Shown piece after piece: positions 33,280 to 53,704 of a DNA stretch of 64,000 nucleotides. The notes beneath the pieces were generated by a model. That model ran no database searches. It worked only from the letters and a program-made list of their open reading frames with translations, and was not told where the DNA came from. Every line of letters begins with the position of its first letter. Within the stretch, counting starts at the first letter, position 1. Origin of the DNA: an uncultured bacterium. GTDB taxonomy: Bacteria; Zixibacteria; MSB-5A5; GN15; FEB-12. The stretch is from the NCBI GenBank assembly GCA_965603125.1, contig CBFDBU010000010.1, positions 8,734 to 72,733 of the forward strand, read 5' to 3'. The position numbers were made by a program, and so were the translations under genes.

Positions 33280-34629
33280 TCAACCGTGGTCGATCCGAAG
33301 TTCCCTGAGCATTTTCCGCAGGTTCGAAGGATCCAGACGGAGTTCGCGGGCAGCGGCGCTGACCTTATTGTCGTTGCGAGCGAGAGCCTGAACCAGGACA
33401 AGCTTCTTGAAGTCGCGCATGCGGTCACTCAGGCCGCCGTGAGGCTTGCCCTGGTGTCCGGAGTAGGACAGATACGCAGCCACCTCATGGCGCGTGATCA
33501 GATGCGAGAGCGTCAGATCGATCAGAGACTGGACAGTGTCGAGAAGTTGCCGGACGTTGCCCGGCCAGTCGTACTCGATGAGAAGATCGCGTGCTGACGG
33601 TTCAAAGACCTTGACAACCATGTCGGTTTCCCGGCAGTAGCTGTCGGTGAAGTAGTCGATAAGATCCGGGATATCTTCGCGACGATCCTTGAGGGGCGGC
33701 AGAGTGATCTGGATTCCTTTCAAGCGGTAGTAAAGATCTTCCCGGAATGTTTTCTCAGCGACCAACCTGTCCAGGTCGGAATTGGTCGCGCAGATCAGGC
33801 GCACGTCAACATGGATCGTCTCCGGCGATCCGATTCGCTGCAATTCCCCGGTCTCTAATACGCGTAAGAGCTTGCCCTGAGTGGTTATATCGAGATTGCC
33901 GATCTCATCAAGGAAAATAGTGCCGCCGTGAGCGTACTCGAACATGCCGATGCGATCGGCCACGGCGCCGGTGAAGGAACCTTTCAAATGACCGAACAGT
34001 TCGCTCGCGACCAGATCGGGAGCTTTATGATTGCAGTTAAACACGACCAGCTTCAGGACGGACCGTTTGCTGCGACTGTGAATCGCGCGCGCGACAAGTT
34101 CCTTGCCGGAGCCGGTCGGCCCCAAGATCATGACTTTGCTGTCGGTGGGGCCGATCTTTTCGATAGTCCGGAAGATCCGGCACATAACGTCGGACCGTCC
34201 CACTATCCCGAAGTGCTCTCGGGCGAATTCGATCATTTCGGCGCCACGGGTCTTGAGGTGGTGGAAAGACACGGCGTTTTGCACCGAGCGAATAAGGCGG
34301 GCGGGGCGTTCGTTCTTGCCGATGTAATCAAACGGCCGATGCTGTTTGTCCATTGCGTCTGCTGAGTACTCACCGGGATACCCGGTGTGAAAGATCAGGG
34401 GAACGTCGGGATCCATTTCCCGTATGCGGGAGGCAGTCTCCAGCCCGTCCATTCTTGCCATTCTGATGTCGAGGATGATGGTATCCAGGTCATTGTGGTC
34501 TCCCAGCGCGGCCAGGCCCTCTTCGCCTGATGAGGCCAAGACTACGTCGTAATCGTCGAGAAACGTCTGGTGCAGCGCCTCGAGGACCAAGTGGTCATCG
34601 TCTATTATGAGAATTTTGCCCTGCTTCAC
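33280..34629 (-). CDS. sigma54-dependent response regulator (REC plus AAA+ plus Fis-type HTH; NtrC family)
   Basis: 449 aa. REC: KILIIDDDHLVLEAL...LDIRMARMDG. AAA+: Walker A ILGPTGSGKELVARAIH, the GAFTGA-like loop GSFTGA, and Walker B TIFLDEIG. The C-terminal HTH is NKVSAAARELRLDPSNLRKMLRELRI. Confidence 0.9.
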   Translation of the reverse strand: MKQGKILIIDDDHLVLEALHQTFLDDYDVVLASSGEEGLAALGDHNDLDTIILDIRMARMDGLETASRIREMDPDVPLIFHTGYPGEYSADAMDKQHRPFDYIGKNERPARLIRSVQNAVSFHHLKTRGAEMIEFAREHFGIVGRSDVMCRIFRTIEKIGPTDSKVMILGPTGSGKELVARAIHSRSKRSVLKLVVFNCNHKAPDLVASELFGHLKGSFTGAVADRIGMFEYAHGGTIFLDEIGNLDITTQGKLLRVLETGELQRIGSPETIHVDVRLICATNSDLDRLVAEKTFREDLYYRLKGIQITLPPLKDRREDIPDLIDYFTDSYCRETDMVVKVFEPSARDLLIEYDWPGNVRQLLDTVQSLIDLTLSHLITRHEVAAYLSYSGHQGKPHGGLSDRMRDFKKLVLVQALARNDNKVSAAARELRLDPSNLRKMLRELRIDHG

Positions 34630-34662
34630 CGTCTGCCGCAGTCTTCTGAGGATTAAACGAAC

Positions 34663-37600
34663 TCAGTCTGACATGAGAAATATAACAAATTTTGTCCCCT
34701 TGTCAATCTCAGATTCGACGGCAACGTCACCGTCGTACAGTTCAGCTATCTTCCTGACCATAGCCAACCCCAGGCCGGTGCCGAAGGTCGGCTTCGTGCT
34801 GTAAAACGCGTCGAATACTCGCGGTATTTCTTCGCCGGGGATGCCGCATCCGGTGTCGGCGAACTCCACCTTGAGGCGTTGGCCTTCCTTCCGAGCTGAA
34901 ATGTCCAGAACGCGCACCGGGGTGTCCCGCATGGCATCCAGGGCATTGACCGTCAGGTTGTTAAACAGGCTGTGAACATGTGGCCGGAAGCTCCGCAAGG
35001 TGAAATGATCCGCGATCTCGAGGTTAACGCTGACGCCCAATTCATGAATACGCAGCTCATGACTCTCCAGGACCTCCAGGAGGACCGACCGCAGGTTGAC
35101 CCCCTCAGTCTTCTTCTGCGACTCAAGTTTCGAGAACTGGGTCACCAGTCCGGTCATGTCGATTGCCCGCTCCACGGCGCTCTCGGTCAGGCCCAGCAGC
35201 TTTCGGTTGCGACGGATTTCCTCCACCTCCCCGAGGTGGAGCCGCTCTTTCAGCTTGTGAAGGCTGCTGGTGGCGGGGAAGAGGGCGTTGTAAATCTCGT
35301 GCGCCACGCCACCGGCAATCCGCTTGACCTGGTCATATCGTTCCCTGTTGGCTGCGGCCAGTTTTCTCTCTGCTTCTCGGTGCTTGGTGATGTCAATGAT
35401 GATCCCCCTCAGGCCCGCTGCGCTGCTGTCGACAACGATCCGATCGGTGTAGATCATGACCGGGAAGGTGCTACCGTCCTTCCTGAGCACAGTGTATTCA
35501 CTGCCGCTGATCCCATCCCCGTTGAGCGTCCTGTCTATGTCTTCCCGGACCCTGTCGCGGTCCTCGGAAACAAACAGATCGAGAGCATTCAAGCCCTTAT
35601 CCAGGTCTGTCTTCGCGTAACCGGTGGTCTCGAAACCATGCTGGTTGGCGAAGGTGAAACTGCCGTCGCGGTCCATTTCGAACAGAGTCAGGGGCAGAAG
35701 TTCGGCCAATTCACGGAACTTCTTCTCGCTCTTGCGAAGCGCCTCCTCCGCTACTCTGCGCATAGTCACATCATGGGCAATGACAAGCGCGGCCGTCGTT
35801 GTGCCCTGGGCATCCCGGTACGGCTGAAGGTTAGTATGGAACCACCGCCACCGGCCGTCGACAAAGCTTCTGGACTCCGTGGTGAGTTCCGTTTTGGATT
35901 CGATAACACGGCGGATATTCCGCATCTGTCTGTCGGCTACGTCCTTCGGAAAGAGGTCCCATTGCGATTTGCCGGCAATCTCGTCCGATTTCCGGTTAAG
36001 CGCCCTTGCGGCATTCTCGTTGACGAAAAGGAACTTGCCTTCCCAACTGACCAGGGCGATGGCGGCCCCGACGTTCTGTACCAGCAGACGGTATTTCTCT
36101 TCGCTTGCGCGGATGGCCTCTTCAGCGCGTATGCGTTCGGTTACGTCGCGACAGAACCCAATGACTGCGTCCTGGCCGCCGAACTTCTGTCGCGAACTGC
36201 TGATATCAACATAGATCACTCTGCCGTCCTTGCGCACCATGGGCAGCTGCGATACGAGGCGACGGGCATCGATGGTTGCACGCCGGAACTCAGAAAGGGC
36301 GTGCTGAACCTGTGACTTGGGGATAAGATCGCCCACGCGCATCTGCAGCAACTCTGTCCGGGAGTATCCCAACATGCGGCACATCGCAGGATTGGCGTAG
36401 ATGTATTTCCGGGTTTTCGCGCCGGCGGCCAGAATGCCGTCCGTAGACGATTCGGCCAGCGTAACGTAGCGCTGATCGCTTTCCCTGAGAGCCTGGTGAG
36501 CCAATCTGCGCTCCGTGATATCCTGGCCCACGGCAATAGCGGTGAGCTCCTCCGAGTCGGCTGAAAAGAGAGCCGAATTGGACCACAGAATGGTCCTGGT
36601 TTCACCAGACCTTGTCCTGAGCGGGCCTTCATACATGTTGCGGGGGTTCTGCCTCACCCAGTCAGCGAAACTCATCGGGTGATGGTGATGGTGTTCGGTG
36701 GGCAGGAATATCTCCGGCCAGCTCTTGCCGATGACTTCCTCGCGCGAGTACCCGGTGACCTTCTCGATCTCCCGGTTGAAGACCGTTATCCTGGCCTGGC
36801 CGTCAAGGCAGACAATCAGGCTGTTGGCCGTATCCAAGAGCGAGTGTATGAAATCTCGTTCGCTCTGAAGTTCCTGCTGTGTTTGAACCAGGGCAGTGAT
36901 GTCACGCGAAATCACGAGAACCGACGCAACGGCGTTCGCCTTGTCCCTGATCGGTTCCATGCTGGTAAGGTATCGGGTCTTCTTGCCCTGCGACTCAATG
37001 TCCGACTCAAAAACGACACCGCTCCCGGTCTCGAATACTCCGGTAATGCGCTCTATGAACTGGGATGCCTGATCATGGAGCATGCAGTCCCGTATCGTGC
37101 TTCCGATGAGTTCCCGAGGGTCCCGGCCGAACACTTCGGCGCTGACATTATTGAGGTATAAGAAAACTCCTTCGCGGTCTACGGTGAAGATCGCCTCATG
37201 GGCGCTCTCCACCAGGGTGCGATATCTCTGTTCGCTTACCCTCAGGGCCTCATCCGTTCGTTCTCTCTGCGTGATGTCACGCGCCACGCCCTCCGACCCG
37301 ATAACGACGCCGTCTCTGTCTCTTAAGAGGGTGGCGCTGATACTCACGATCACGCGGCGACCGTCGCGGGCGATGAGTTCGGCATCGAAGTCGGTTACCT
37401 TACCGGATTGTCTCAGGAGCCGGTTGTACTGCTCGCGCCGGTCAGGATCTGCGTAAAAGCTGCGGGCCTCCTTGCCCACCATATCATCCTGAGAATCATA
37501 GCCCAGGACTCGGACGCCACCCGGAGACACCCACTGGACGCGACCGTGTGAGTCGATCTTGAAAAAGATATCCTGAGTGCTTTCTAAGATGGAGCGGAGT

Positions 37601-39114
37601 TGTTCCCGGCTCTTTGCCAAACGGCGAGCAGTCTTCTGCCGATAGGCGTTGACAATAACCAGCGCCAGGAGAAGGGCGAACAGCCCTATCAGAACAAAGT
37701 TCTGGTACTCCCAGAACAATATCCTGGCGTAATCACCGAACACCTTGCGTTTCACACTGACGACCGTGGCCGTATTGTCGCGAGTGGCGATGAACGAAAC
37801 GACGTGACCCTCGTTATCGAGTACGGTCGGGTGGAAGTGACGAAAATCGGTATCAAGGTGTGCCAGACGTTTGAACGCGGACGAATACAGCCCCATCCCG
37901 TCGCCTGCTGTGAAGAGGTAAGCCGGTCGCATCTGACCCTCAACGCGCACCGTATCCAGGAAGTGCTCCAAATCGGTCTCGTGCGATTGGGCCAGGAGAG
38001 TCAGGTTGTCATCGTAGATGCGGACGATGCCGCGTGACGAGAGAGTATAGAAGTCCACCGTGCCGTCACCGTCGTAATCATCCCGCCATCCACTTCTGAT
38101 ACGCTCGCCGACATCGACGGTTTTCAGAAGCCGGCCGTCCCGGTCGATTTTCGACAACTGGTACCGGTGGGGTGGCAGGTCGGCGGCTTGGTCGGGTTCG
38201 ATCATTGGCAGGGCGTGAAACACATAGAAGCACTCATCCCGCTCGCTGTGCCAGATCCCCTTGCTGCCGTGTTCCTCGGACAGTATACGACGAAAGAGCA
38301 GTCTGCCCCGGCTGTCGACTTTGGCCAGGTAGCAGAAACGGTCGCTGAAGTTCTCGTCCTCGACGCTGTTCTTGTAGTTGTAGGTCGCGAACATCACGGC
38401 CGGGTGAAGTGAGTCCCGGCAACTGAGGATATTACCGACACTGACCGGGGCCGCCACCGGCAGGGACCATTCGAGACGCAGGTTTTCCGGCTCGACACAG
38501 TATAGAATACGCGGCCTCAAGTCACGTCCCGGATCCAGGTAGAAGAACACCTCCTGAATACCGTCGTAGTCATAGTCATCGACCAATACCGGCGAGACCC
38601 GTCCTTCCCAGACCCCGTTACCGGTGAGGTCCTCTCCGGATGCCAGATAGATGAGATCGTGACGATCGGCCCGTGGCACAATCCTCACCATGAAAGCAGA
38701 ATCGTTGCGGTAGCATCCGGCGGCGATAGCTAAGCATCCCGCCTTACCGTCATAATAGAGGCGAAAGCCTGAGACAGTCGCATACAGCGGATCCCAATCC
38801 AGAACCTGGGAGTGAGTGATATCGTTGAAACTGAACACAGCCGGTTCGTCGCGGTTGACGTCACCGTTAAAAGCGTGAACGAGAAGAGCCGTGTCCGACA
38901 CGGCGTCCTGCACCCGATAGACCTGCATGGCATCGGAGACAGGGATTTTCCCGACGCCCCAGTCATGGAAGTGCCGTTCACGGAAAGTGTACGGGAGCAA
39001 CCGATCATCGCAGGCGCAGTCGATTTCAATCTCGTCGACAGTCCCGGCAGCGGCATTGAGCGTCAGAAGGCATACGAGCGCTGGTACGGCCGTTTTCAAA
39101 TACTCGTTCAACAT
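34663..39114 (-). CDS. giant sensor histidine kinase: ~465-aa periplasmic domain with FG-GAP-like motifs, one TM, six PAS domains, HisKA and HATPase_c
   Basis: 1483 aa with a signal/TM N-terminus. Periplasmic motifs are VDDYDYDGIQEVFFY and RDDYDGDGTVDFYTL. The TM segment is FVLIGLFALLLALVIVNAY. There are six PAS repeats, each ending ..(A/G)RDIT.R... The H-box is IAGGVAHEIYNAL. The N and G boxes are NLTVNALDAM, DTGCGI and GTGLGL. A 33-nt gap separates it from the response regulator gene. Confidence 0.85.
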   Translation of the reverse strand: MLNEYLKTAVPALVCLLTLNAAAGTVDEIEIDCACDDRLLPYTFRERHFHDWGVGKIPVSDAMQVYRVQDAVSDTALLVHAFNGDVNRDEPAVFSFNDITHSQVLDWDPLYATVSGFRLYYDGKAGCLAIAAGCYRNDSAFMVRIVPRADRHDLIYLASGEDLTGNGVWEGRVSPVLVDDYDYDGIQEVFFYLDPGRDLRPRILYCVEPENLRLEWSLPVAAPVSVGNILSCRDSLHPAVMFATYNYKNSVEDENFSDRFCYLAKVDSRGRLLFRRILSEEHGSKGIWHSERDECFYVFHALPMIEPDQAADLPPHRYQLSKIDRDGRLLKTVDVGERIRSGWRDDYDGDGTVDFYTLSSRGIVRIYDDNLTLLAQSHETDLEHFLDTVRVEGQMRPAYLFTAGDGMGLYSSAFKRLAHLDTDFRHFHPTVLDNEGHVVSFIATRDNTATVVSVKRKVFGDYARILFWEYQNFVLIGLFALLLALVIVNAYRQKTARRLAKSREQLRSILESTQDIFFKIDSHGRVQWVSPGGVRVLGYDSQDDMVGKEARSFYADPDRREQYNRLLRQSGKVTDFDAELIARDGRRVIVSISATLLRDRDGVVIGSEGVARDITQRERTDEALRVSEQRYRTLVESAHEAIFTVDREGVFLYLNNVSAEVFGRDPRELIGSTIRDCMLHDQASQFIERITGVFETGSGVVFESDIESQGKKTRYLTSMEPIRDKANAVASVLVISRDITALVQTQQELQSERDFIHSLLDTANSLIVCLDGQARITVFNREIEKVTGYSREEVIGKSWPEIFLPTEHHHHHPMSFADWVRQNPRNMYEGPLRTRSGETRTILWSNSALFSADSEELTAIAVGQDITERRLAHQALRESDQRYVTLAESSTDGILAAGAKTRKYIYANPAMCRMLGYSRTELLQMRVGDLIPKSQVQHALSEFRRATIDARRLVSQLPMVRKDGRVIYVDISSSRQKFGGQDAVIGFCRDVTERIRAEEAIRASEEKYRLLVQNVGAAIALVSWEGKFLFVNENAARALNRKSDEIAGKSQWDLFPKDVADRQMRNIRRVIESKTELTTESRSFVDGRWRWFHTNLQPYRDAQGTTTAALVIAHDVTMRRVAEEALRKSEKKFRELAELLPLTLFEMDRDGSFTFANQHGFETTGYAKTDLDKGLNALDLFVSEDRDRVREDIDRTLNGDGISGSEYTVLRKDGSTFPVMIYTDRIVVDSSAAGLRGIIIDITKHREAERKLAAANRERYDQVKRIAGGVAHEIYNALFPATSSLHKLKERLHLGEVEEIRRNRKLLGLTESAVERAIDMTGLVTQFSKLESQKKTEGVNLRSVLLEVLESHELRIHELGVSVNLEIADHFTLRSFRPHVHSLFNNLTVNALDAMRDTPVRVLDISARKEGQRLKVEFADTGCGIPGEEIPRVFDAFYSTKPTFGTGLGLAMVRKIAELYDGDVAVESEIDKGTKFVIFLMSD

Positions 39115-39279: not shown

Positions 39280-39312
39280 AAAAGGTCACCACAGACAACG
39301 GTTGTGGTGACC
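39280..39312 (-). terminator. rho-independent terminator between the giant FG-GAP gene and the kinase gene
   Basis: The minus strand reads GGTCACCACA-ACCGTTGTC-TGTGGTGACC (perfect 10-bp stem) followed by TTTTCAGTT. It starts about 42 nt after the stop at 39354. Confidence 0.6.
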
Positions 39313-39353
39313 GATGTAGTCCGTCGAGCGGCAGAAGAATCCGGCGCCGGCAA

Positions 39354-42300
39354 TCAGAGATCGCAGATAGGCTCCGGGCCATTCACAAACATGTAGTCGA
39401 CCAGGTAAACCAGATCAGCAATGTCAATCAGAGTTCCATTCTCACCGTCCATATTGGCCGCTCGCAGGTCCGGCGGCTCCGGGCCCTGGTTGAACATGTA
39501 GTCGACCAGATAGACCAGATCGGCGATATCGATGACTTCCTGCCAGTCACCGTTGACGTCGCCGCATATGTATTCCTCGTCCTTGTTCAGGAGCAACGAC
39601 ATATCCTGAGTGTTCTCGTTGACGGTTACCAGATCGAGATCGCCGTCGCCGTCGAAATCCGCCGCTACGACAACTTGGGGATTGATACCTGTCGCATACT
39701 GTCTGGAGGAGTTGTATATGCCGCCGCCGCTGTTTCTGAGAACGGATACGTCGTTGGACACGCCGTTGGCCGTGGCCAGGTCAATGTCGCCATCACCGTC
39801 GAGATCAGCCGCGACAAGCGAGTAGGGGATATCTCCAACATCGTATGTCGCACCGGGACTAAAGCTGCCTTCGCCGTTGTTGTAGAGGACGGAGACGTCA
39901 CCGGAGGTAACGTTGGCGGCGGCCAGGTCAAGCCGGTCGTTCCCGGTCAGATCAGCCGCAAAGACGGACTGCGGGAACACACCTACGGGGTAGACCACAG
40001 CAGGCGCGAAAACGCCGTTGCCGTTGTTCATCAGGATGGATACGCTGCCGTCGAACTTGTTGGCCGTTACCAGGTCGATATCACCATCGTTGTCGAAATC
40101 GCCGGCGAATATGCAGTAAGGATGGTCGCCCACGACATAGGCCGAGTCCAGGGTGAAAACACCGAGGCCGTCGTTCTTGAGGATCGTGACACTGTCCTCG
40201 CCCGTGTTGGCCGTAGCCAGGTCAAGGTCTCCGTCACCGTCGAGGTCGGCGGCAAAGAGCGAGCGGGGGTTAAGGCCGACCTGATACGTGACTTCGTTAC
40301 CGAAGTCTCCTGTCCCGTCATTTATCAGGATCGTGACACTGTCCTCGCCCCCGTTGGCCGTGGCTAGGTCCATGTCGTCGTCTCCGTCAAAGTCGCCGGA
40401 GAAAACCGAATAGGGACTGTTGCCTACGCTGTAGGTCGCATCCAAAACGAAGGTGCTGTCTCCGGCATTGAGCATGATCGAAACAGTGTGAAAGAGTAGG
40501 TTGGCAGTAGCGATATCCAGGTGGCCGTCGCCGTCAAAATCAGCGGCAAAGGCGCCCCGGGGGCTGACACCGATGGAGTTGTCGAGATGGTCCCCGAAGG
40601 AGCCGGCGCTTCTGACAGCCCGGGCTGTGAACGACCAGACTCGACCGCTGTCCAAGGGGTAGCCTTCGGCGGAATTGACCTCGGGAAGCAGCACCGCCGT
40701 GACGACCTCACCGGCCTTGAATGTCGAGTCGGGATGGAAAGACGCCGTCCTGGACGGAGCGTCGTAACTGAATGAACCGTGCTGGAGTCCCTTTGACTTC
40801 GCCATGACTATCAGCGATGAACTGTTGAAGGACGACGCCTCGACATCATCATTGAAAGTCACGGAGATGTCGGCGTCGGATGCAATGTCCGCCCTGTTGG
40901 GTGGCGGCCAGACCGATGCTATCTGGAACAGAGCGCGGTTCCAGAGCACGGAGACGGTGTTGGCCGACGCGTTAGCGACAACCAGGTCGATATCTCCGTC
41001 AATCTGAAGGTCGGCGGCAAAGACCGACAACGGCCCCTCGCCGGCGTCGTAAGCGGCGTGTTCGGCAAAAGTACCGTCGTCGTTGTTCAGCAGGACGGAG
41101 ACGGAGGCGGAGCCGAAGTTAGCTGTGGTCAGGTCAAGGTCGCCATCGGCGTCCAGGTCGGCGGTGGCAATTGAGAGAGGCTCGCTGCCGACGGCGTAGT
41201 TCACGCAGTCCGCAAATGTGCCGTCCTGATTGCTGATAAGAATGGAGACGCTGTCGGTACTGTGGTCTGCCGTCGCCAGGTCGAGATGGCCGTCATCATT
41301 GAGGTCGGCGGCCAGCAGCGCCATCGGGCCGCCGTCGACAGAATAGGCCGAATCCAGATTGAAACCGGTGCCATCGCCGTTGTTCAGAAGCAGTGATACA
41401 GTTCCAGAAGAATCGGCTGTCGCCAGATCCAGGGCGCCGTCATCGTTGAGATCGGCGGCACAGACAGACTGCGGCGACAGGCCCGTCTCATAGACCGACT
41501 GCTCGGCGAAAGTGCTGTCGCCGTTGTTGAGCAGCACTGATACGTTGCTGGAAAGCATATTCACCACCCCGAGATCGACGTATCCGTCTCCACTGAGGTC
41601 AGCGGCAAAGACCGATCGGGGCTTCGAACCAACAACGACCTTGGTCTGGGTGGCAAAGGTGCCGTTACCATTATTTAGCAGGATGGAGACACTGTCTTCA
41701 TCATAGTTCGCACTCACCAGGTCGAGACTGCCGTTGCCATCCATATCGGCAGCGACAACCGAGATCGGATTGTCGCCGACCTCGTAGAGAGCTTGCGGGC
41801 TGAAGGTGCCATCGCCGTTGCTCAGCAGGACAGACAGGCTGTCCGATGCCGCGTTTGCTACAACCAGGTCCGGAAAGGCGTCATCATTGAGACAAGCGGC
41901 AATCACACAGGTAGGCTCCTCTTTCACCTCATAAGCGGAATCGACGGCGAAGGTGCCGATGCCTTCATTGACTATCGTTGTGAACGACCAGGTGTGGCTG
42001 GTGTCAAGGGGGTAGTCCTGAATCGACTTGACATCGGAAGTAACGATCATCGTGACTACCTCGCCGTGGTCGAAATTAACGACGGGATCAAACGTGGCGG
42101 TCATGGTCGGGTCATCATAGCTGATTGTCCCCGAATGTTTGCCCGTCAGGCTCGAGTACACTACAAATGAGGAATCGTGGAAACTGTCGCCGTTCATACT
42201 GTAGTTGAAGGTTACCGAGATGTCCGTGGAAGGAGGGAGGTTCAACTCGTTGGGCGCCGGTGTCAGTTCCGTGATCTCAACGATGGCTCGATTCACGATT

Positions 42301-45300: not shown

Positions 45301-46421
45301 CTGTCGTGTTTAGTGGCCGTAACTGCCAAATCGAGGTACCCGTCGTCGTCGAGGTCGGCGGCGCACAGAGCGAACGGGTCGTGAGACACTTCGATGATAA
45401 CAGCACCGGGTACGAAGCTGCCGGAGCCGTCGTTGGACAGCACGGTGACCGTGTTTCCGGTCTGGTTGGCGGTGGCGAGGTCAAGGTCATCATCGTTGTT
45501 CAGGTCGGCCACAACGATCGAGGTCGGGTTCTCGCCAACACTATAGTTGTCAGGCGGGGTTGCGAAGGTACCGTTGCCGTTATTGGAGAAAACAGACACG
45601 TTGCTGGAAAAGGCATTGGCCACCGCCAGATCCACGTCCCCGTCGCCGTCGATGTCGATGGCGCATACTGACAGTGGCTCGGTGCCGGCGATGTATGCCA
45701 CGTGGTTCTGGAAGGTGCTGTCGCCATCATTGATGACGACCGAGATATTGTCCGTGTTGCGGTTGGCCGTCACCAGGTCGAGGTAGCCATCGCCGTCAAG
45801 ATCAGCCGCACAGACGCCGAAAGGGTCCCCGCCTACTGCCAGAACGAGATCGTCGGAGAAAGTGCCGCCGCCCGCGTTGAATGCTACGGAGATGTTGTTG
45901 TCGCTGCCGTAGTTCGCTGTGACAATATCCGGTAGACCGTTACCGTCGACATCGGCCATTATCACCGTGCGCGGATCATCCCCGACCGAGTAACTCGTAT
46001 CCACGGCAAAAGTACCCACGCCATCGTCGGTGGCCGCAGTGAAAGACCAAAGGCAAGGGCTGCCCAGGGGATTGCCGATGCTCGACTGAACAGCGGTCGT
46101 TAGTGCGATCAACACGACCTCTCCTTCGAAGAAGGCTGAGTCGGGATCGAATGTCGCGGTATAGGTCTGGTCGTCGTAGCTGTAGGTGCCGCTGTGCGGT
46201 CCCGAAGAGAGGCCGGCAATAATGAAAGAGGCACCGGTCAGTGTGGATGAATTCATGTCAATGTCAAAGGTCACCGAGACGTCGGCCGTAGCTGACACAT
46301 CAAGGTCGTTCCGGAGCGGTGATGTGGATGTTACTGTCGGCGTCTGGGCGAAAAGGGCAGCGTTGCCGACCAGCAACGCCGTGATCGCAGCAGTGATAGT
46401 GTTTCGCAGCTTCCTACGCAT
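39354..46421 (-). CDS. giant secreted protein: 5 x (Ig-like domain plus seven FG-GAP/VCBS repeats) plus C-terminal twin dockerin-like module
   Basis: 2355 aa. The signal peptide is MRRKLRNTITAAITALLVGNAALFAQ. There are 35 D-x-(D/N)-x-D-G-type loops embedded in VxAADLDGDGxLDLxxAN...VSVLLNNGDGTF repeats. The C-terminus reads CGDVNGDWQEVIDIADLVYLVDYMFNQGPEPP..ANMDGENGTLIDIADLVYLVDYMFVNGPEP. AAGGAG lies 8 nt before the ATG. Confidence 0.85.
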   Translation of the reverse strand: MRRKLRNTITAAITALLVGNAALFAQTPTVTSTSPLRNDLDVSATADVSVTFDIDMNSSTLTGASFIIAGLSSGPHSGTYSYDDQTYTATFDPDSAFFEGEVVLIALTTAVQSSIGNPLGSPCLWSFTAATDDGVGTFAVDTSYSVGDDPRTVIMADVDGNGLPDIVTANYGSDNNISVAFNAGGGTFSDDLVLAVGGDPFGVCAADLDGDGYLDLVTANRNTDNISVVINDGDSTFQNHVAYIAGTEPLSVCAIDIDGDGDVDLAVANAFSSNVSVFSNNGNGTFATPPDNYSVGENPTSIVVADLNNDDDLDLATANQTGNTVTVLSNDGSGSFVPGAVIIEVSHDPFALCAADLDDDGYLDLAVTATKHDSVSVLINNGAGGFAAAVNYAVGDYPSSVVAADVDGDGDMDLATCNRDTDNISIMHNNGSGVFGSSSFFPTGAYPYSICAADIDAFGGVDLVTADANSDEVSVLLNRTIAQIVDVTPEPGELNVSVATDVTVTFDAEMNGSSIDGSSLVITGRSSGPSSAAISYDGPSQTATADPGTDFSAGEPVTVVATEGILTSEGFPVESALTWTFTTAVDGGFGTFAVDSAYAVNDAPASVFAADLDGDGDIDMATAEWMSDSVSVLFNNGDGTYAVDSQYPVGQAPYCVVAADIDRDGYMDLVTANQYGNNVSVLLNNGDGTYQQHLRYAVGTQPFSVVAIDLNADGYPDLATSQHNAAEISILWNDGQGGFDPRTVVPVSWQNHSICAEDFNLDGAVDLAVSHDATARVSVLLSDGEGDFSDQAWYMVGTIPYSVIAVDVNGDTLPDLVTANGLSDDVSVLLNNQDGTFGTQQLYEAGNNPSQVAAADYDGDGDLDLAVANFESDDIAVLLNDGASNFSAPSLFPTGEAPNSLFAADYDGDGDVDLATADRYDSTVTVFFNRAIPHVVSVSPEPNAKNTPVATDISVTFDVDMDDATITATSFVVNARSTGRHQGVIAYNDQTATLDPDVDFKEGELVTVVLTTDVKTLEGYSLDTAFIWSFTTEALHGSDTYGPQVVYPVREKPSSVFSAYINDDDFLDLVVANTDTNSVSILLNDRDGTFLPDIVLEVSSGPASVVAADLDGNGLLDLATADRNTSQVSVLLQEGGGFAAHVEYTTGDDPGGILAADLNGDGKLDLVTSNEGSNDVSLLVGNGDGTFGSPSDFAVGISPQSVVAADLDNDNDLDLVTANILHDSVSVLMNNGFGEFVLDSAYVAGLDPVCVIAAEFTGDDYVDLVTANAKGDSISFLRNKQDGTFVDTVRYAVGDRPSSVFAADVDGDGFLDLVVANSNSNDLLVLTNNGNGTFTEFISFPVGNYPTSVFAADFDNDGDMDFATANSNSNDVSVIVNRAIVEITELTPAPNELNLPPSTDISVTFNYSMNGDSFHDSSFVVYSSLTGKHSGTISYDDPTMTATFDPVVNFDHGEVVTMIVTSDVKSIQDYPLDTSHTWSFTTIVNEGIGTFAVDSAYEVKEEPTCVIAACLNDDAFPDLVVANAASDSLSVLLSNGDGTFSPQALYEVGDNPISVVAADMDGNGSLDLVSANYDEDSVSILLNNGNGTFATQTKVVVGSKPRSVFAADLSGDGYVDLGVVNMLSSNVSVLLNNGDSTFAEQSVYETGLSPQSVCAADLNDDGALDLATADSSGTVSLLLNNGDGTGFNLDSAYSVDGGPMALLAADLNDDGHLDLATADHSTDSVSILISNQDGTFADCVNYAVGSEPLSIATADLDADGDLDLTTANFGSASVSVLLNNDDGTFAEHAAYDAGEGPLSVFAADLQIDGDIDLVVANASANTVSVLWNRALFQIASVWPPPNRADIASDADISVTFNDDVEASSFNSSSLIVMAKSKGLQHGSFSYDAPSRTASFHPDSTFKAGEVVTAVLLPEVNSAEGYPLDSGRVWSFTARAVRSAGSFGDHLDNSIGVSPRGAFAADFDGDGHLDIATANLLFHTVSIMLNAGDSTFVLDATYSVGNSPYSVFSGDFDGDDDMDLATANGGEDSVTILINDGTGDFGNEVTYQVGLNPRSLFAADLDGDGDLDLATANTGEDSVTILKNDGLGVFTLDSAYVVGDHPYCIFAGDFDNDGDIDLVTANKFDGSVSILMNNGNGVFAPAVVYPVGVFPQSVFAADLTGNDRLDLAAANVTSGDVSVLYNNGEGSFSPGATYDVGDIPYSLVAADLDGDGDIDLATANGVSNDVSVLRNSGGGIYNSSRQYATGINPQVVVAADFDGDGDLDLVTVNENTQDMSLLLNKDEEYICGDVNGDWQEVIDIADLVYLVDYMFNQGPEPPDLRAANMDGENGTLIDIADLVYLVDYMFVNGPEPICDL
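39582..46343 (-). repeat. five tandem super-modules of 448-452 aa (~1.35 kb each)
   Basis: Module boundaries were counted by hand on the translation: aa 27-478, 479-929, 930-1377, 1378-1828 and 1829-2280. In nucleotides these are 44988-46343, 43635-44987, 42291-43634, 40938-42290 and 39582-40937. Modules 2-5 open with NR(A/T)I..I....P.P......(T/A)D(I/V)(S/T)VTF; module 1, which follows the signal peptide directly, lacks the NR(A/T)I opening but has the corresponding ADVSVTF core. Confidence 0.8.
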
Positions 46422-46582: not shown

Positions 46583-49500
46583 CTATGGGCAACTGACGGG
46601 CGGCGGGTCGCCATTGAACATAAAGTCCACTAGGTAGACCAGGTCGTCGATAGCCAGCACACCGCCCCCGTCGCCGTTTACGTCCGATTCGTCAAAACAG
46701 ACCGGCGCCGGGCCCTGATTGAACATGTAGTCGACAAGGTAAACCAAATCCGCTATGTCAATCAACACGGCGTTATCGTAGTTGATATCGCCTCTTATCG
46801 GCGGGATACAGCACTCACCGATTCTTCGGTACAGACCGGCCGGTCCCGGCGCCTGCACGGGAGAATCGAAGCCGAACTTCAGATAAGCGAAATTGATTAT
46901 CTCAGCACCGGACATTAGGCCCTGATCGGGATTCACAGAATAAGTGATATAGCCTTCACCGTCCGGGGGCGACACGTTTGGCGGCAGGTAGATCTTATCG
47001 CAGTACCATGTAAGCTCGCCGGTCAGAACGTCGAATCCCACGAACCTGCAGGCTTCCGGATGACTCATCTCCCCGATGCTGAGGGAACTGGAACTCCAAT
47101 CAAGGTTGACATCGAGCGTGTCAACAATCTCAATAGATGAGATCGGTGCGGTAGCCTCTGCTGCATTCTCGAAAGCTATCGTATACGAGAGTCGCTGATC
47201 CGGCTCTATGGCATAGGCCAGATTAGTCCCGTTGGGAGAAGCCAACTTGTCGGCACTGTAGGCAGTTCGCGTGCCCGATTTAGAGGGGTTGGTCACGATC
47301 TGGGCGTGGCGAACGTAGTCGTTGCGGCTGTTGCCGTCCGCGGTAGTAGTCGATAGCCACATCTCCGTGACCAGCGTGTCAAAACCGGGCGTTACCTGGG
47401 ATGACAGCGTACCATAGGGTACGATGCGATTCCAGTCATTGGAAGGTTCAATCGTGCCCAGCGACATTACTATCGTATCACCCACAAAGCTGTACTGGCC
47501 TGGGTTTATGACGGCCCCGGAGGAATCTCTGATTCCCTCAAACGCCATCGCAGCCGGAAGGAGCACCTTCAGAGTGCAGTCCTCGGCGGGTAGATTGCCG
47601 GCGTTGTGGAATGAACACCAGTACCAGATATCATACCCGGGCCGGGAACCCCAGGCGTTGATATTGACCTCGGCGTACAGATCGGACCACAGAATGTTCC
47701 GCACCTGGATGAACTCAAGCTTCTTGTGGGGGTTCGATTCTTCCACGGCGTTGCGCACTGTAAGAGTGACTTCAAACCGTCCGGGATAGCCGTACTTGTG
47801 GGTCGGATTCTGGACGGAACTGTGCTGGCCGTCACCGAAGTCCCAGTCCCACCAATCGGGGGCGCCGGTTGTATCGGCGTAGAACTGGAACACCGTCGAC
47901 GTATCACCGGCCGTCGGGGTGGCCGTGAAGTCGGCAACCAGGTCGATCGGGTCAACAACCGTGAAGCAGTATGGTCCACCCCAATCCGGTACGTAGGTCT
48001 CGCTGCCCGTCGCCCAGATCCATTCGTTGCTGGGAGGATACCAGGTCGAATCCAGGCAGACTTCAGCGCCGCGGAACTTGGCATCAATAGGATCGAGGGT
48101 GATAGTGTATGCCACTATGTCAAGACCGTTAGGCACGCCGACACCCTGCAGGGCGTATCCTCCAAACCCGGTAGTGTCGCCACTCGCGCCGAAACTATTG
48201 ACAAACCGGCCGCCATCAAGGCTGGTGGAATCGTCGAAACCGCTTGTGCTGACTGCGCTGCTCACACTTATCGGAGTTCCGGTGGGCGAGTAGATGCGGA
48301 AACCGTTCGTCAGGCCGGGGATATCAGTACCCTTGGTGGCGATTACGTTCGAGACCCTGATGTGGAACGTGATCGGTTCACCCGCTCTTATGTAGCGGCT
48401 TGAATGATAGAGCCCGTCAACGTAGTCAAGGTATACGTTTCCGCCAGGCTGCGTAGAGCGGCTGGTCTGCTTTCCGCCGATGGGAGGGGGAGGGGGGGGA
48501 CCGCCTTGAAACAGGTAGCCCACCAGGTACGTCAGGTCTCCCACATCCACACCAGGCACTCCATCCATGTCCGCTGCTTCCATTATCGGCGGCGGCGGCC
48601 CACTCCCGAACAGGTATGCAACCAGGTAGGTGATATCGCCGACGTTAACACGGCTGTCGTCGTTGACATCACCGCAGACGTAGACCGGTTCCGGCCTGAT
48701 ATGGTCGTCGTACCACTGATGGCAGGCCTCAGCATCGGCGATAAAGGCTGCATAGTTGACGTTGCTGGTGATCATGCACTTGTAGACCTCTAACGTGTCA
48801 TCCGGGCCAAGGGTGTAATCCCAGCGGAATGTCATCACCGCGTGCAGATCGGCATCAACCGAATCCGAGAGCACATAACCTTCGTTGTTGGCCATGTACA
48901 TGTATATCGAATCCGGAACGAACGCGCCCGCGGGATAGACCTGGGTCGAGTTGTCCATTGTGTAGCAGCCGTACTGCTCACCCGCCGGTTCACCGTTCTC
49001 TAAGATTTGCAGCAGCTCGATGCCGCCGTAACGATCACTGTTGTTCATGCACTCGTAAGCATCATCCTGGTCCCACTCCGAACCCTGCTGATAAATCAGG
49101 CGGAGGCCGGGATCGAAACCGCAGCGGTTACGAGCCGCCGAGTCGGAGGGAATATCCCAATCGATCGCCTCACCAATGGCCAGACCCTCGTGCGTCTCGC
49201 CATCCTGGGCGTAGACCTTCATGTACTGAATCAGGAAGTGACAACTGTCAACCGCCGCGCGCGGCGCAATCCAGTTATTCTCAAACATGATACCAGAGTC
49301 ACGCGTCACGAACGAAGACTGGAACACCTCGTAGTCGCCCATGTCGGTCGGCGGCGTGTGGCTCCATGGGAAGAAACCATTATCAGAGAGGTAACCGTCG
49401 CCGAAGATCGACCAGTTGCAGCGGACCGTGTCGGTCGCATCCATCCAGCAGATCACCGGTGAGGCGTCATTGACATAGATCGTGGCGTTACCCGGAATGG

Positions 49501-51880
49501 TGTCACCCGGACTGCCTTCCTCGGCGTCGTCACAGTCACCATAGTCGAAGTAATCCATGTTGACCTGCCCGATGCCCTGTTGACCCCAGTTGCCGTTGTT
49601 GCCAACAGTCAGAGCCATGCATGCGTCTTCGTCACCGGCATAAATGGTATCCCAGACCGGCGTTATAACCGTGTCCACAACCCGGTGCTCGATCTCAATG
49701 GTGTCGGGACCGGTTACATGGTTACCGCCTATGATCAGACGACCGGAAAGAATAGTCACCATGCCCGGGTCGCCACCAACCGTACCCAGGGCATTAATGT
49801 ACACCTGACCGGTCATAATACCGGCAAGACCAGACGGAAGGACGACGGTACCCTGCAAGTTGCCCGAAACATCCAGCCAGCCGGCAGGCCCTTCATCTTC
49901 TTCAGGTGTCACCGTGAAGGTAGCAGCCGAGTTACCCGTGTTCTCCAGCACCAGATCGGTGTCATGGATCACGTATTGATGGGACCAGGAGGGGAAACCA
50001 ATTGAGGTCCACGACGGCGCCAGCAGAGGCGTCGCCTCCGGGTCCACACAGACCAACTGGAATGATTGCACGTTAGCATTCTGCCAAGAGCCCTCATTCT
50101 GGACAATAGCACCCGCATCCGGGTCACTGATGTACTGCACGCTCATATACCAACCGTTGTCTACGGCAAGATCCCCCGCAGGGAGCAATATCTCAGCTCC
50201 CGTCATGTCGTCGCCGACAATGTTGGTGCCAAAGCGCGCCATCGACGGCCAGTGATCCGACTCACAGCGACCACCCGTGCCGCTGGCGGAGTCACAACCC
50301 GGCGTATGCGAGTTGGTCAGGTTACGAGGCAGATCCCAGGTCAGACCACCATCGTCCGAAACAGCCAGGTACAGTTCGCCGTTGGCCGAACCTACCACGT
50401 CCCCAGTCTGAGCACGGGCAGCACAGTCGTCCATCATGATATTGGGATCGTTGAACTGAACCCACAGGTAATACAGCCTGCCGTTGCACTCGGAAATGGT
50501 CATCTTGGAACCATTCATCTGCCAGGCGCCACCGTTACAGGTCGTTTGGTTCCAGTCCAGGTTCCCGGCGGTACGAATGATGGCGTTGTCAGTCTGCGGG
50601 TCAGGCCCGTCGAAACCTCCAGTCCCCAGGTTCTCACCCCAGTGGAACATACGGCAGTTCAGACCGATGTAACCGCCACTACCGGCGTCAGCCGGCCAGA
50701 TACGGCCGCTCCAGCCAATATGCAGAGCGTTAACACCGTTGGCCGCATCCTGCGTGATCAGGGCCGACAGGTCGGTGTAAGGACGGAAACCAGCCTCACC
50801 GTCAACGTTCTTGGTCACGTTAACACGAGGATTGAAGTCAGCGCCGTAGTTGTCCGAAATCTGGTAGTAGATATCATTGTCCAGCTGGACAAAGGGCGAG
50901 GTACCGGAACAGGTGTCGCAGTCACCGTCATTGGGCAGGTTGCCCGTCCAGACCAGGGCCATCTTGCCGTCGGTCATGGAGCAGGCCACATCCTGCGAGA
51001 GATCATAAATGGTGTCGATCACGTAAGGCGGATAATCCCAGGCGCCATCCATTCCAATTCCCACCTTGCGGAAATAGTAGATCACCAGTTGGTCACCTGC
51101 GCCTGGTGAGGAGGATTGCGCAATCACGTGTGTTACCGGCTCGTGCCCGGCCACGTCATGATAACGCATGGCCGGCCAGGACGCCGAATTCCCCGTCATG
51201 GCGGGATAGGACTGCACACTGTCAGGCACACGGGAAGTTAGACCGAAATAGGCGCACATCGGACAGTAATCGTAGTACACCTGGCTAGCGCAGCCGCTCC
51301 CCTGGTTGTTGTGGCAGATTATGACGGCTTGGTTTGCGGCCTGAAGAATGGTTTCACCCTCAGTCCGCAGCATCTGGGTCACATCAAGACCGCCGCCTGC
51401 GGCATATTCACTCGGAGACTGAACGGACACCCCCAGGCCAGGATAAAGTTGCGTGCCGGTCTGACCCATGTAGCAGTTGTAGTAGATATGATAATCTTCC
51501 AGAACCGGACCCGGCAACTGCATATAGCAGTAATGAATCGCGAAGCCATAATCCATACCGTCACCCAAGTCAGGACCCCAACCCCAGTCGACCATGCGGC
51601 CCATCGAGCCGTTACGCTGTTGGTCGTACCAGGTCTCACCGACCTTGACTCCGGGAGATGCCGTGGCGACCCCGGCACCGCCTAAAGACATAGCCGGTGC
51701 GCTTCTGTCTGGGGCGGCTGTCGACCTGGTTTCATCCGGAAACACGTATTGCATCGCCCGCGCTACATGGGGATTGGCAATGTCGCTCTCCTGCGGGGAG
51801 TCTTTCCCCGAAACCGGAGCAACCAGCATGACAACGGCAAATGCGGTAATCATCGTCCGTGAAAAAACTCCTCCTGTCAT
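46583..51880 (-). CDS. giant secreted multidomain protein: N-terminal BNR/Asp-box-containing region, internal dockerin-like module, PKD domain, C-terminal dockerin-like module
   Basis: 1765 aa with signal peptide MITAFAVVMLVAPVSG. An Asp-box reads LAVSDDGGLTWD. The internal dockerin CGDVNDDSRVNVGDITYLVAYLFGSGPPPP..ADMDGVPGVDVGDLTYLVGYLFQGGPPPPPP starts at aa 1069. The PKD domain reads FTATPTAGDTSTVFQFYADTTGAPDWWDWDFGDGQHSSVQNPTHKYGYPGRFEVTLTVRN. The C-terminus reads RGDINYDNAVLIDIADLVYLVDYMFNQGPAP..SDVNGDGGGVLAIDDLVYLVDFMFNGDPPP. GGAGGAGG lies before the ATG. Confidence 0.8.
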   Translation of the reverse strand: MTGGVFSRTMITAFAVVMLVAPVSGKDSPQESDIANPHVARAMQYVFPDETRSTAAPDRSAPAMSLGGAGVATASPGVKVGETWYDQQRNGSMGRMVDWGWGPDLGDGMDYGFAIHYCYMQLPGPVLEDYHIYYNCYMGQTGTQLYPGLGVSVQSPSEYAAGGGLDVTQMLRTEGETILQAANQAVIICHNNQGSGCASQVYYDYCPMCAYFGLTSRVPDSVQSYPAMTGNSASWPAMRYHDVAGHEPVTHVIAQSSSPGAGDQLVIYYFRKVGIGMDGAWDYPPYVIDTIYDLSQDVACSMTDGKMALVWTGNLPNDGDCDTCSGTSPFVQLDNDIYYQISDNYGADFNPRVNVTKNVDGEAGFRPYTDLSALITQDAANGVNALHIGWSGRIWPADAGSGGYIGLNCRMFHWGENLGTGGFDGPDPQTDNAIIRTAGNLDWNQTTCNGGAWQMNGSKMTISECNGRLYYLWVQFNDPNIMMDDCAARAQTGDVVGSANGELYLAVSDDGGLTWDLPRNLTNSHTPGCDSASGTGGRCESDHWPSMARFGTNIVGDDMTGAEILLPAGDLAVDNGWYMSVQYISDPDAGAIVQNEGSWQNANVQSFQLVCVDPEATPLLAPSWTSIGFPSWSHQYVIHDTDLVLENTGNSAATFTVTPEEDEGPAGWLDVSGNLQGTVVLPSGLAGIMTGQVYINALGTVGGDPGMVTILSGRLIIGGNHVTGPDTIEIEHRVVDTVITPVWDTIYAGDEDACMALTVGNNGNWGQQGIGQVNMDYFDYGDCDDAEEGSPGDTIPGNATIYVNDASPVICWMDATDTVRCNWSIFGDGYLSDNGFFPWSHTPPTDMGDYEVFQSSFVTRDSGIMFENNWIAPRAAVDSCHFLIQYMKVYAQDGETHEGLAIGEAIDWDIPSDSAARNRCGFDPGLRLIYQQGSEWDQDDAYECMNNSDRYGGIELLQILENGEPAGEQYGCYTMDNSTQVYPAGAFVPDSIYMYMANNEGYVLSDSVDADLHAVMTFRWDYTLGPDDTLEVYKCMITSNVNYAAFIADAEACHQWYDDHIRPEPVYVCGDVNDDSRVNVGDITYLVAYLFGSGPPPPIMEAADMDGVPGVDVGDLTYLVGYLFQGGPPPPPPIGGKQTSRSTQPGGNVYLDYVDGLYHSSRYIRAGEPITFHIRVSNVIATKGTDIPGLTNGFRIYSPTGTPISVSSAVSTSGFDDSTSLDGGRFVNSFGASGDTTGFGGYALQGVGVPNGLDIVAYTITLDPIDAKFRGAEVCLDSTWYPPSNEWIWATGSETYVPDWGGPYCFTVVDPIDLVADFTATPTAGDTSTVFQFYADTTGAPDWWDWDFGDGQHSSVQNPTHKYGYPGRFEVTLTVRNAVEESNPHKKLEFIQVRNILWSDLYAEVNINAWGSRPGYDIWYWCSFHNAGNLPAEDCTLKVLLPAAMAFEGIRDSSGAVINPGQYSFVGDTIVMSLGTIEPSNDWNRIVPYGTLSSQVTPGFDTLVTEMWLSTTTADGNSRNDYVRHAQIVTNPSKSGTRTAYSADKLASPNGTNLAYAIEPDQRLSYTIAFENAAEATAPISSIEIVDTLDVNLDWSSSSLSIGEMSHPEACRFVGFDVLTGELTWYCDKIYLPPNVSPPDGEGYITYSVNPDQGLMSGAEIINFAYLKFGFDSPVQAPGPAGLYRRIGECCIPPIRGDINYDNAVLIDIADLVYLVDYMFNQGPAPVCFDESDVNGDGGGVLAIDDLVYLVDFMFNGDPPPVSCP
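48482..48676 (-). other. internal twin dockerin-like module plus poly-Pro linker inside the 1765-aa protein
   Basis: It spans aa 1069-1133. The Cys codon lies at 48674-48676 and the P6 run is encoded by 48482-48499 (the coding strand contains a C8 tract). Confidence 0.7.
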
Positions 51881-53702: not shown

Positions 53703-53704
53703 AG

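Follow-up and report, generated by a model that had tools for sequence, protein, structure and literature searches.

Organization of the locus and domains of its two giant proteins

The window analyzed here is a stretch of 64,000 nucleotides (nt) from an uncultured bacterium of the Zixibacteria (positions 8,734 to 72,733 of contig CBFDBU010000010.1, GenBank assembly GCA_965603125.1). It contains four consecutive open reading frames (ORFs) on the minus strand, with products of 1765, 2355, 1483, and 449 amino acids (aa). The first two code for giant proteins with dockerin-like modules, named giant 1 and giant 2 below, and the other two for a histidine kinase and an NtrC-type activator. The original prediction, made from the sequence alone, gave the coordinates and lengths of the four ORFs exactly as we find them in the ORF list, and described them as one system in which the dockerin tails work without a cohesin partner. 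Central to our analysis is a divergent cohesin-like module that lies inside giant 1.

Giant 1 (46583..51880, minus strand, as are all features of the four genes) is composed, according to Pfam and an inventory made with hidden Markov models (HMMs), of an N-terminal conserved domain, a dockerin, the cohesin-like module, a PKD domain, a DUF7619 domain, and a second dockerin. Residues 1 to 1060 (48701..51880) correspond to a signal peptide and a conserved domain of ~1030 aa that is defined by its homologs and for which no Pfam or PDB family was found. As this domain contains a single Asp-box (BNR, 10 bits, E about 1), which aligns to sialidases with E values of 0.1 to 0.3, the description of giant 1 as an Asp-box protein was overstated. 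The PKD domain that had been claimed is present (aa 1319 to 1388, 47717..47926; PKD_4, E = 1.3e-12; PKD, E = 2.5e-11), and we also identified a domain of the DUF7619/DUF11 type (aa 1558 to 1676, 46853..47209; Pfam DUF7619, E = 6e-17; NCBIfam B_ant_repeat, E = 2.6e-7). Giant 2 (39354..46421) consists of a signal peptide, five units of ~450 aa (454, 451, 448, 451, and 450 aa), and a C-terminal dockerin-like module. Each unit combines a Big_5 immunoglobulin-like (Ig) domain with an FG-GAP repeat region that we read as a seven-bladed propeller; the FG-GAP nature of the protein, already noted in the prediction, is borne out by 30 FG-GAP_3 stretches (E = 3e-196), next to five Big_5 domains, in the Pfam search. 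The signal peptides of both giants were judged by eye.

The two giants contain three dockerin modules. Both C termini end, as originally described, in a duplicated GDxNxD...IDIADLVYLVDYMF segment (46586..46792 in giant 1 and 39357..39566 in giant 2, with 102.9 and 109.1 bits to the tail-family HMM, respectively). The third module, which the original prediction overlooked, is an internal type I dockerin of giant 1 (aa 1066 to 1130, 48491..48685), followed by a Pro-rich linker. It scores 26.4 to 27 bits against Pfam Dockerin_1 (PF00404), over the cutoff of 22.9, and 80.8 bits against the tail-family HMM. All three share two tandem segments of ~22 residues, each with a Ca-binding loop (D-x-[DN]-x-[DN]-G...D) and then a helix, and the loops of many members of the tail family have two or three extra residues. 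Searched in isolation against Pfam and NCBIfam, the tails gave subthreshold matches or none: that of giant 1 reaches 13.8 bits with Dockerin_1 (cutoff, 22.9), and that of giant 2 has no Dockerin_1 match. The term dockerin is thus justified for the tails by their family profile and not by the Pfam threshold.

The tail of giant 2 served as the reference sequence of this family (alignments A1 and A2). Since a word-indexed homology search with the tail returned just 25 short fragments, an exhaustive search of cluster representatives was used instead. Among 1.84 billion of them, the tail profile found 31,508 proteins at E <= 1e-3 and 9,404 at E <= 1e-10, in which the module is mostly C-terminal and present in up to 12 copies. 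Against the PDB, the A2 profile (20 sequences) matched dockerin chains exclusively, across both segments (best match, 2y3n_B; E = 0.005). The Pfam Dockerin_1 model itself is reached by 8 of the 20 aligned members (best E = 4.7e-10) and by 27 members of a census of 48 tail-bearing proteins (best E = 3e-23). Judged by sequence, the twin segments at the two C termini are dockerins of a divergent, type-I-like kind, and we infer that they bind cohesins in a Ca-dependent manner. After Dockerin_1, the most frequent domains in the census are TSP_3 (12 proteins), DUF7901 (10), and beta-helices (7), with FG-GAP, S8 subtilases, PKD, and C1/C39-like cysteine peptidases in smaller numbers, and carbohydrate-active domains are hardly present. 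Pfam Cohesin was found, and confirmed, in two of the 48 proteins (P0180 and P0082) and also in P0119, which is outside the census.

In the Pfam-positive proteins, the cohesin comes directly after an internal dockerin, and for this reason the equivalent position of giant 1 was examined. A cohesin sequence served as a pointer to the Pfam-positive members, which were then verified with Pfam. At the equivalent position (aa 1142 to 1315, 47936..48457), ~20 residues after the internal dockerin, giant 1 has a module ('CLDSTWYPP...WGGPYCF') that recurs in one to three copies in 39 of 186 tail proteins (single-sequence phmmer). Its AlphaFold2 (AF2) model, made with 28 copies of the module, is all beta (pLDDT, 88.9; pTM, 0.86), and in a Foldseek search of the PDB with this model, ranks 1 to 32 are all cohesins (E = 1.5e-6 to 6e-4), for example, 5lxv_C (E = 1.5e-6) and 4dh2_A (TM-score, 0.65/0.71). 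The beta-sandwich of cohesins is described as a jelly-roll of nine strands. The target-normalized TM-scores of these 32 matches range from 0.33 to 0.73, and those of the single-module cohesin entries from 0.56 to 0.73. At the level of sequence, the family of the module (A5) could be linked with hhalign to the Pfam-positive cohesin modules (A6), over 151 columns, with a probability of 94.2% and E = 1.1e-7, and both families have the motif 'DS-x-[WF]-x-[PA]P-x-G-x-[WF]' in common. The A6 profile in turn matches the solved cohesins 4dh2_A and 1aoh_A, and its member P0119 scores 34.1 bits with Pfam Cohesin.

This module could also be a generic beta-sandwich, of the Ig-like, carbohydrate-binding, or adhesin type, with the dockerin-like segments acting as Ca-stabilized structural or ligand-binding elements that do not pair with it. 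Such a view would account for the lack of a Pfam Cohesin match, for a profile search of PDB sequences that gave nothing meaningful, for the low identity to solved cohesins (8 to 16%, with a root mean square deviation of 3.3 to 6 Å), and for the pilin and adhesin sandwiches that follow from Foldseek rank 33 onward. Dockerin-like modules without known cohesins are also widespread (Peer et al. 2009, as cited in PMC8542988 and PMC6487960). It does not explain why the 32 first structural matches are exclusively cohesins, nor the profile-profile link to the Pfam-positive modules. The module is also closely associated with dockerins, which share polypeptides as well as gene clusters with it, and in relatives it forms tandem arrays with a terminal surface anchor that mirror the known anchoring scaffoldins. 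We consider a generic sandwich unlikely and, guided by the predicted structure, conclude that the module looks like a very divergent cohesin. In six-frame HMM scans of the window, the two giants accounted for every module found, with three dockerins and one cohesin-like module between them, and no canonical cohesin was detected in the rest of the window. The claim that no cohesin-like ORF exists in the 64 kb is then true for the Pfam Cohesin model and fails at the level of predicted structure, and that of a missing cohesin partner is incorrect, because giant 1 holds the module itself.

Some features of these modules are worth recording separately. The internal dockerin of giant 1 (VGDITYLVAYLF) belongs to a subtype different from that of the C-terminal modules (IADLVYLVDYMF). 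On either side of the dockerin modules there are conserved Cys residues (C or CC ahead of the first loop and C-P at the extreme end in A1 and A2), and the cohesin-like module has two invariant Cys (A5), which suggests disulfide clasps. One protein of the tail family, P0040, is made up almost wholly of dockerins, with seven Pfam Dockerin_1 stretches (nine by the tail profile) in 720 aa, and another, P0041, has 12 dockerin stretches in 1187 aa together with a peptidoglycan-binding domain, an architecture with which numerous cohesin proteins would be held at the cell wall.

Cohesin anchors and scaffoldins in related genomes

The cohesin-like module was searched for in a genome scan with one genome per species. 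As the A5 alignment was too diverse, a six-sequence subset of it was used. The scan yielded 187 confirmed copies of the module and 77 kept loci from 39 metagenome-assembled genomes (MAGs), mostly labeled as Zixibacteriota or unclassified and otherwise as 'Ignavibacteriales', Calditrichota, GN15, and, in one case, Ca. Deferrimicrobium. A total of 97 ORFs bear the module; 35 of these end in a C-terminal domain (CTD) of the type IX secretion system (T9SS), 36 end in a dockerin, and the remaining 26 are cut by the contig or end in another way. The nearest database proteins of the module, of ~292 aa, combine a signal peptide and the module with a T9SS type A CTD (Por_Secre_tail, 'NYPNPFNP...KKMxLxK'), which is the architecture of P0187 to P0190. 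The relatives' cohesin anchors, in general, end in Por_Secre_tail or TIGR04183-type domains, with Por_Secre_tail over the Pfam threshold in loci L021, L038, L064, and L044.

Several loci code for scaffoldin-like proteins. That of L021 has four cohesins and a CTD in 1625 aa, that of L038 combines five cohesins with a dockerin and a CTD, and that of L041 has a dockerin, three cohesins, another dockerin, and a CTD; Pfam Cohesin does not match these multimodule scaffoldins either. If a scaffoldin is taken to be a protein with several cohesins and an anchor, L021 and L038 fit the definition, and the window has one cohesin and no anchor. Adjoining the scaffoldins of these same two loci, we identified small versions of giant 2, with Big_5, FG-GAP repeats, and a dockerin. 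Homologs of the N-terminal domain of giant 1 (32 to 77% identity) are separate proteins of ~1150 to 1200 aa with a C-terminal dockerin. In L064, L071, and L067, the gene of this protein is followed by those of a dockerin-bearing S8 subtilase with a PKD domain and of a cohesin anchor with a T9SS CTD, while in L044 the cohesin-CTD anchor comes directly after it, without the protease gene. A related cluster is found in L021, and fragments of one in L007. A cohesin-dockerin system of this kind would be typical of Zixibacteriota and neighboring lineages.

The relatives also bear on the composition of giant 1. A stop codon closes the dockerin gene of L044 (77% identity), and a hairpin, a promoter-like stretch, and a new signal peptide come before the cohesin gene; in the window the counterparts of these two genes are joined through the Pro-rich linker. 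Giant 1 thus looks like a dockerin protein fused with a cohesin protein, given that the relatives of its N-terminal domain are separate dockerin proteins that adjoin cohesin-T9SS anchor genes. Partners that are encoded separately elsewhere and fused here are classic indirect evidence of a functional link.

A different reading of the same fusion is that the dockerin and the cohesin of giant 1 bind each other, either within one molecule, as a rigid clasp, or head to tail, as a self-polymerizing fiber or lattice. The two modules are indeed close together, the internal dockerin is unlike the terminal type, and mixed proteins in which dockerins and cohesins alternate through linkers recur among the relatives: dockerin-cohesin-dockerin in L022, L025, L034, and L052, dockerin-cohesin-dockerin-cohesin-dockerin-dockerin in L028 and L033, and three cohesin-like modules with four dockerin stretches in P0044. 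We regard it as quite unlikely, as in the closest relatives dockerin and cohesin belong to different proteins, each of which has a signal peptide, and the T9SS-anchored multicohesin scaffoldins favor binding between molecules.

The original prediction had the tails as an anchoring or sorting tag independent of cohesins. With a cohesin-like module in giant 1 and scaffoldins beside the homologs of the giants, the independence from cohesins has to be abandoned, and the other half of the idea, that the tails hold large secreted proteins at the cell surface, is still the best reading. Within the window, the sole CTD carrier is a 536-aa FG-GAP protein with a T9SS type A sorting domain (24244-25854, minus strand; TIGR04183, E = 3.5e-6), and its presence means that the organism uses T9SS-type cargo. 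Its gene adjoins that of an exosortase of the EpsH family (26075-27025, plus strand), which is followed by UbiA and DUF6599 genes.

The kinase-activator pair and the rest of the window

The 1483-aa histidine kinase (34663..39114) has, as claimed, six PAS domains in addition to HATPase_c (E = 1.9e-21) in Pfam, which come after a periplasmic sensor and a transmembrane helix. The 449-aa sigma54 activator (33280..34629) is of the NtrC type, as had also been stated, with a receiver (REC), an AAA+, and an HTH_8 domain in Pfam and NCBIfam (Pfam Sigma54_activat, E = 1e-62, with Response_reg and HTH_8). Together they have what defines an NtrC-type two-component system, and the NCBIfam matches of the activator to models of the ntrC/AtoC/ZraR type are below the equivalog cutoffs. 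The periplasmic sensor (aa 25 to 465, 37720-39042) had been described as FG-GAP-like because of its D-D-Y-D-x-D-G loops. Both quoted loops are there, and the relation to FG-GAP does not hold: Pfam FG-GAP_3 gives 12.9 bits (E = 0.18) at a single loop, and hhalign detects no homology between the sensor family and the FG-GAP propellers of giant 2 (probability, 0.2%). The AF2 model of the sensor (pLDDT, 90) is a generic beta-propeller, with WD40 (G-beta) chains and the bacterial propellers YncE and YxaL as nearest structures. In the sensor family, comprising 14 proteins from a first search and 12 more loci from a metagenome scan, the DYDYDG loop is invariant and the second quoted loop is not conserved.

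Between giant 2 and the kinase gene there is a hairpin resembling an intrinsic terminator (39280..39312, minus strand), with a 10-bp stem followed by UUUU, located 42 nt past the stop codon of giant 2 (folding energy, -19.4 kcal/mol; z = -2.49). The hairpin is real, as predicted, although not the only one, since a generic terminator scan of the region found 16 sites against ~14 expected by chance; it is the most convincing of those that are intergenic. Upstream of giant 1 we identified a sigma70-type promoter-like site, TTGACA-17-TATATT (52134..52162, minus strand), that agrees with the consensus at 11 of 12 positions and ties for the best match within 32.7 to 52.6 kb. Sigma54 sites were scanned for with a simple weighted consensus. 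No such site was found in the intergenic region upstream of giant 1, and none of the three regions upstream of the giants and the kinase for which a scan had been suggested (51881-52470, 46422-46582, and 39115-39353) gave anything above background. The top score of the whole window belongs to a -24/-12-like site, cGGCACacgctTTGCA (33141..33156, minus strand), ~125 nt downstream of the activator gene. Equivalent sites are present in L087 (~128 nt past the activator gene), in L086, where it aligns with that of the window, and in L001 and L002, where it precedes a Na/H exchanger gene.

The neighborhood of the kinase was surveyed in 17 loci of relatives, which represent 16 distinct places, and its sole conserved element is the pairing of kinase and activator, retained in L001, L002, L086 to L089, and L095. 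In L086 and L087, the kinase gene abuts a CusCBA-like efflux operon of the resistance-nodulation-division (RND) family (2217-9903 and 3037-9914, respectively), with the parts of a heavy-metal efflux system, i.e., OEP, HlyD_D23 with HMBD, and ACR_tran. A NosD-like beta-helix protein and an unknown protein lie beside the kinase in L004 and L085, a beta-helix giant lies downstream of the activator gene in L088 and L089, and CotH/LTD, VWA, and transporter genes are the neighbors in other relatives. None of the 77 cohesin loci contains a member of the kinase family. On a short contig, L093, a dockerin-positive ORF fragment is found directly upstream of a kinase relative of 27% identity, a weak counterexample that we read as chance because dockerin proteins are so abundant in these genomes.

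These data bear on the proposal that the four genes form one system, in which the tails would be a cohesin-independent tag and the FG-GAP-like sensor would monitor a ligand, Ca, or the surface lattice and control the giants through sigma54. The genes are certainly adjacent and on the same strand, a DxDxDG loop occurs in the sensor and in the cargo alike, Pfam Cohesin has no match in the window, and the distant relative of L093 does have a dockerin fragment upstream. Nevertheless, we find the proposal very improbable. Giant 1 contains a cohesin-fold module, and cohesin scaffoldins adjoin the homologs of the giants in relatives. A terminator separates giant 2 from the kinase gene, and no sigma54 site was found upstream of the giants, the best one lying past the activator gene. 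The sensor has its first loop alone conserved and, by hhalign, no homology to the FG-GAP propellers, and the kinase family is found next to RND efflux, beta-helix, CotH, VWA, and transporter genes. The original prediction had itself named two observations that would speak against it, namely, that relatives have unrelated genes beside the kinase and that the tails are explained by a cohesin scaffoldin, and both were essentially found.

The kinase and activator appear instead to be a separate unit with its own promoter-like sites, not linked to the giants, because of the intervening terminator, the sigma70-like promoter of giant 1, the sigma54 site downstream of the activator, and the variable neighbors of the kinase. 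The likely direct target of the two-component system would be the promoter-like site at 33141..33156 rather than the giants. In its closest relatives, the kinase gene sits with heavy-metal efflux operons or follows that of a NosD-like beta-helix protein, a hint that the propeller sensor and its DYDYDG loop might respond to envelope or metal-cation conditions or stress.

Downstream of the activator there is a candidate sigma54-dependent small RNA (sRNA), at 32870-33156 (minus strand) in the window, 17100-17392 in L087, and 15225-15500 in L086. In it the -24/-12-like site is followed by ~250 to 330 nt without a credible ORF, and Rfam has no family in this stretch. The window and the two relatives have conserved sequence blocks and two conserved 3' hairpins in common, the elements of L086 and L087 end in a T-run terminator, and covariation is weak with three sequences. 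On the plus strand, a promoter-like TTGACT-16-TATATT (32713-32740) is followed ~60 nt further on by a strong GC-rich T-run terminator (32800-32833), so that a transcript of ~85 nt, convergent with the candidate sRNA, is possible at 32713-32833.

The four genes lie in a 21-kb stretch bracketed by two minus-strand tRNA genes, tRNA-Gly(TCC) (32274-32348) and tRNA-Gln(CTG) (53704-53775). Within the stretch and close to tRNA-Gln are a 221-aa ORF with an integrase core (rve; 53001-53666) and a small ORF (52471-52794). With an even GC content throughout, the stretch bears no clear mark of a recent island. At 11494-13937 (minus strand), the window codes for an HtrA-like protease (Trypsin_2 and PDZ) and then a sigma70-family factor, and the same pair is found upstream of P0014, the most distant relative of the kinase (L003, 581-2826). 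The ORF after this pair (9109-11235, 708 aa, no Pfam match) was considered as a kinase paralog and discarded, as it has no similarity to the kinase. The region from 4001 to 8000 is low in GC (0.42 to 0.48, against ~0.57 elsewhere) and contains a triple-rhodanese protein, a sulfur-transport protein, and a tRNA-Leu.

Proposed surface assembly and comparison with known systems

Taken together, we consider it probable that the two giants are the cargo and the adaptor of a noncellulolytic cohesin-dockerin assembly at the cell surface and that the kinase and activator are a separate unit. Both giants appear to have N-terminal signal peptides and would therefore be exported by Sec. Their dockerins would then bind cohesin modules in the presence of Ca. 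Giant 1, with one cohesin and two dockerins, would act as the adaptor, its cohesin accepting giant 2 or another giant 1 and its terminal dockerin plugging into a cohesin anchor that is encoded outside the window and fixed to the outer membrane through the T9SS. In this way, the cell would expose adhesin-like FG-GAP/Ig arrays on its surface. The fusion in giant 1 might be a record of the cohesin-dockerin partnership and might allow polymerization in a daisy chain.

Several observations weigh against this assembly. Between aa 1131 and 1320, giant 1 has no Pfam match even at E <= 5, Cohesin (PF00963) included, and the cohesin call is one of predicted structure, at 8 to 16% identity to solved cohesins and TM-scores of 0.5 to 0.7. 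The cohesin-T9SS anchor was not found within the 64-kb window, Pfam, NCBIfam, and the HMM scan detected a T9SS CTD on neither giant, and the dockerin fragment of L093 lies next to a kinase relative.

As for its role, the cargo suggests adhesion and proteolysis and not cellulose breakdown, because of the FG-GAP/Ig arrays, the conserved N-terminal domain, and the proteases in the neighboring clusters. We give about even chances to a broader version of this scheme, in which Zixibacteriota and their allies (MAGs labeled Calditrichota, GN15, and 'Ignavibacteriales') combine cohesins invisible to current models, an abundant dockerin variant, and scaffoldins with a T9SS CTD in an outer-membrane-tethered display of adhesin-like proteins and proteases. 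When sequence models fail to recognize divergent cohesins, uncultivated phyla of diderms can, as an artifact, appear to have 'dockerins without cohesins', and the alignment of the cohesin family (187 copies from 39 genomes) can be used for building an HMM. If the binding is true, the principle of the cellulosome would also cover outer membranes on which adhesin-like and proteolytic proteins are displayed, and it would help in addressing how Zixibacteria, which are common in sediments and aquifers, become attached to particles or polymers.

A close known case is that of the Cloacimonadota 'Ca. Stygibacter', for which a cellulosome-like complex has been proposed (Williams et al. 2021, PMC8542988), with a tandem-cohesin scaffoldin that carries a conserved T9SS C-terminal domain for surface attachment and with dockerin-tailed enzymes (PMC8542988). 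Both are diderm phyla with signal-peptide proteins, an S8 peptidase among them, that end in dockerins, and the scaffoldins of our relatives L021, L038, and L064 follow the same logic, which ties cohesin scaffoldins to a T9SS anchor in a second phylum beyond Cloacimonadota. A first difference is that the 'Ca. Stygibacter' cohesins are recognized by InterPro, whereas the present family escapes Pfam Cohesin. Moreover, its scaffoldin contains CBM2/CBM3, and its cargo includes glycoside hydrolases, while here we find FG-GAP/Big_5 arrays, the 1030-aa domain, and proteases. The dockerin-cohesin adaptor fusion of giant 1 also sets the window apart, as does the absence of an anchor gene from it. Literature searches returned no report linking Zixibacteria with dockerins or with type IX secretion.

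Pairs of cohesins and dockerins outside cellulosomes have been documented in a rumen survey (PMC6487960; Peer et al. 2009 as cited there), which also describes dockerins on peptidases and other noncarbohydrate proteins, scaffoldins with dockerins, and modules outside Firmicutes (PMC6487960). These surveys of noncellulosomal modules relied on sequence models, which miss the present cohesin family, and, according to a recent preprint, many cohesins escape homology searches owing to sequence divergence. Anchoring through a T9SS type A CTD is established in Bacteroidota (Lasica et al. 2017, as cited in PMC8542988), and the anchors of our relatives end likewise; in contrast to direct CTD cargo, the giants have no CTD, and we infer that they are attached indirectly, by way of the cohesin-dockerin pair.

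With the clostridial cellulosome (Acetivibrio thermocellus CipA, OlpB, and SdbA), the window shares the duplicated Ca-binding dockerin segments and the predicted cohesin fold, the best structures being 5lxv, 4dh2, and 4uyp. Proteins with both a cohesin and a dockerin act there as adaptors, as does ScaB of A. cellulolyticus, and giant 1 holds both modules. The clostridial multicohesin scaffoldins end in a surface anchor, as do those of our relatives. Unlike them, however, the anchor is a T9SS CTD and not an SLH or sortase type, and the host is diderm. The dockerin loops often have insertions of two or three residues and flanking Cys, and the cohesins form a distinct sequence family. We found no glycoside hydrolase or carbohydrate-binding module domains in the two giants with Pfam, so they do not constitute a cellulosome in the strict sense.

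NtrC-family systems with an adjacent sigma54 target are well known, such as ZraSR and AtoSC, and there are also examples in which the target is an sRNA, as in GlrKR-glmY and LuxO-qrr. The pair in the window resembles ZraSR and AtoSC in that a kinase is paired with a REC/AAA+/HTH_8 activator, a -24/-12-like site adjoins the activator, and relatives lie near metal-efflux operons. It differs from them in its sensor, a family of periplasmic beta-propellers of ~440 aa in which the DYDYDG loop is invariant and for which Pfam has no model, and in the stretch past the promoter-like site, which is without an ORF or Rfam match.

On the whole, a four-gene system is not supported, and we read the locus as an NtrC-type two-component system that happens to adjoin the genes of a cohesin-dockerin assembly. 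What is new in relation to the known cases is not a new system but a cohesin family that Pfam misses, spread over Zixibacteriota and allies, and a fused dockerin-cohesin adaptor, giant 1.

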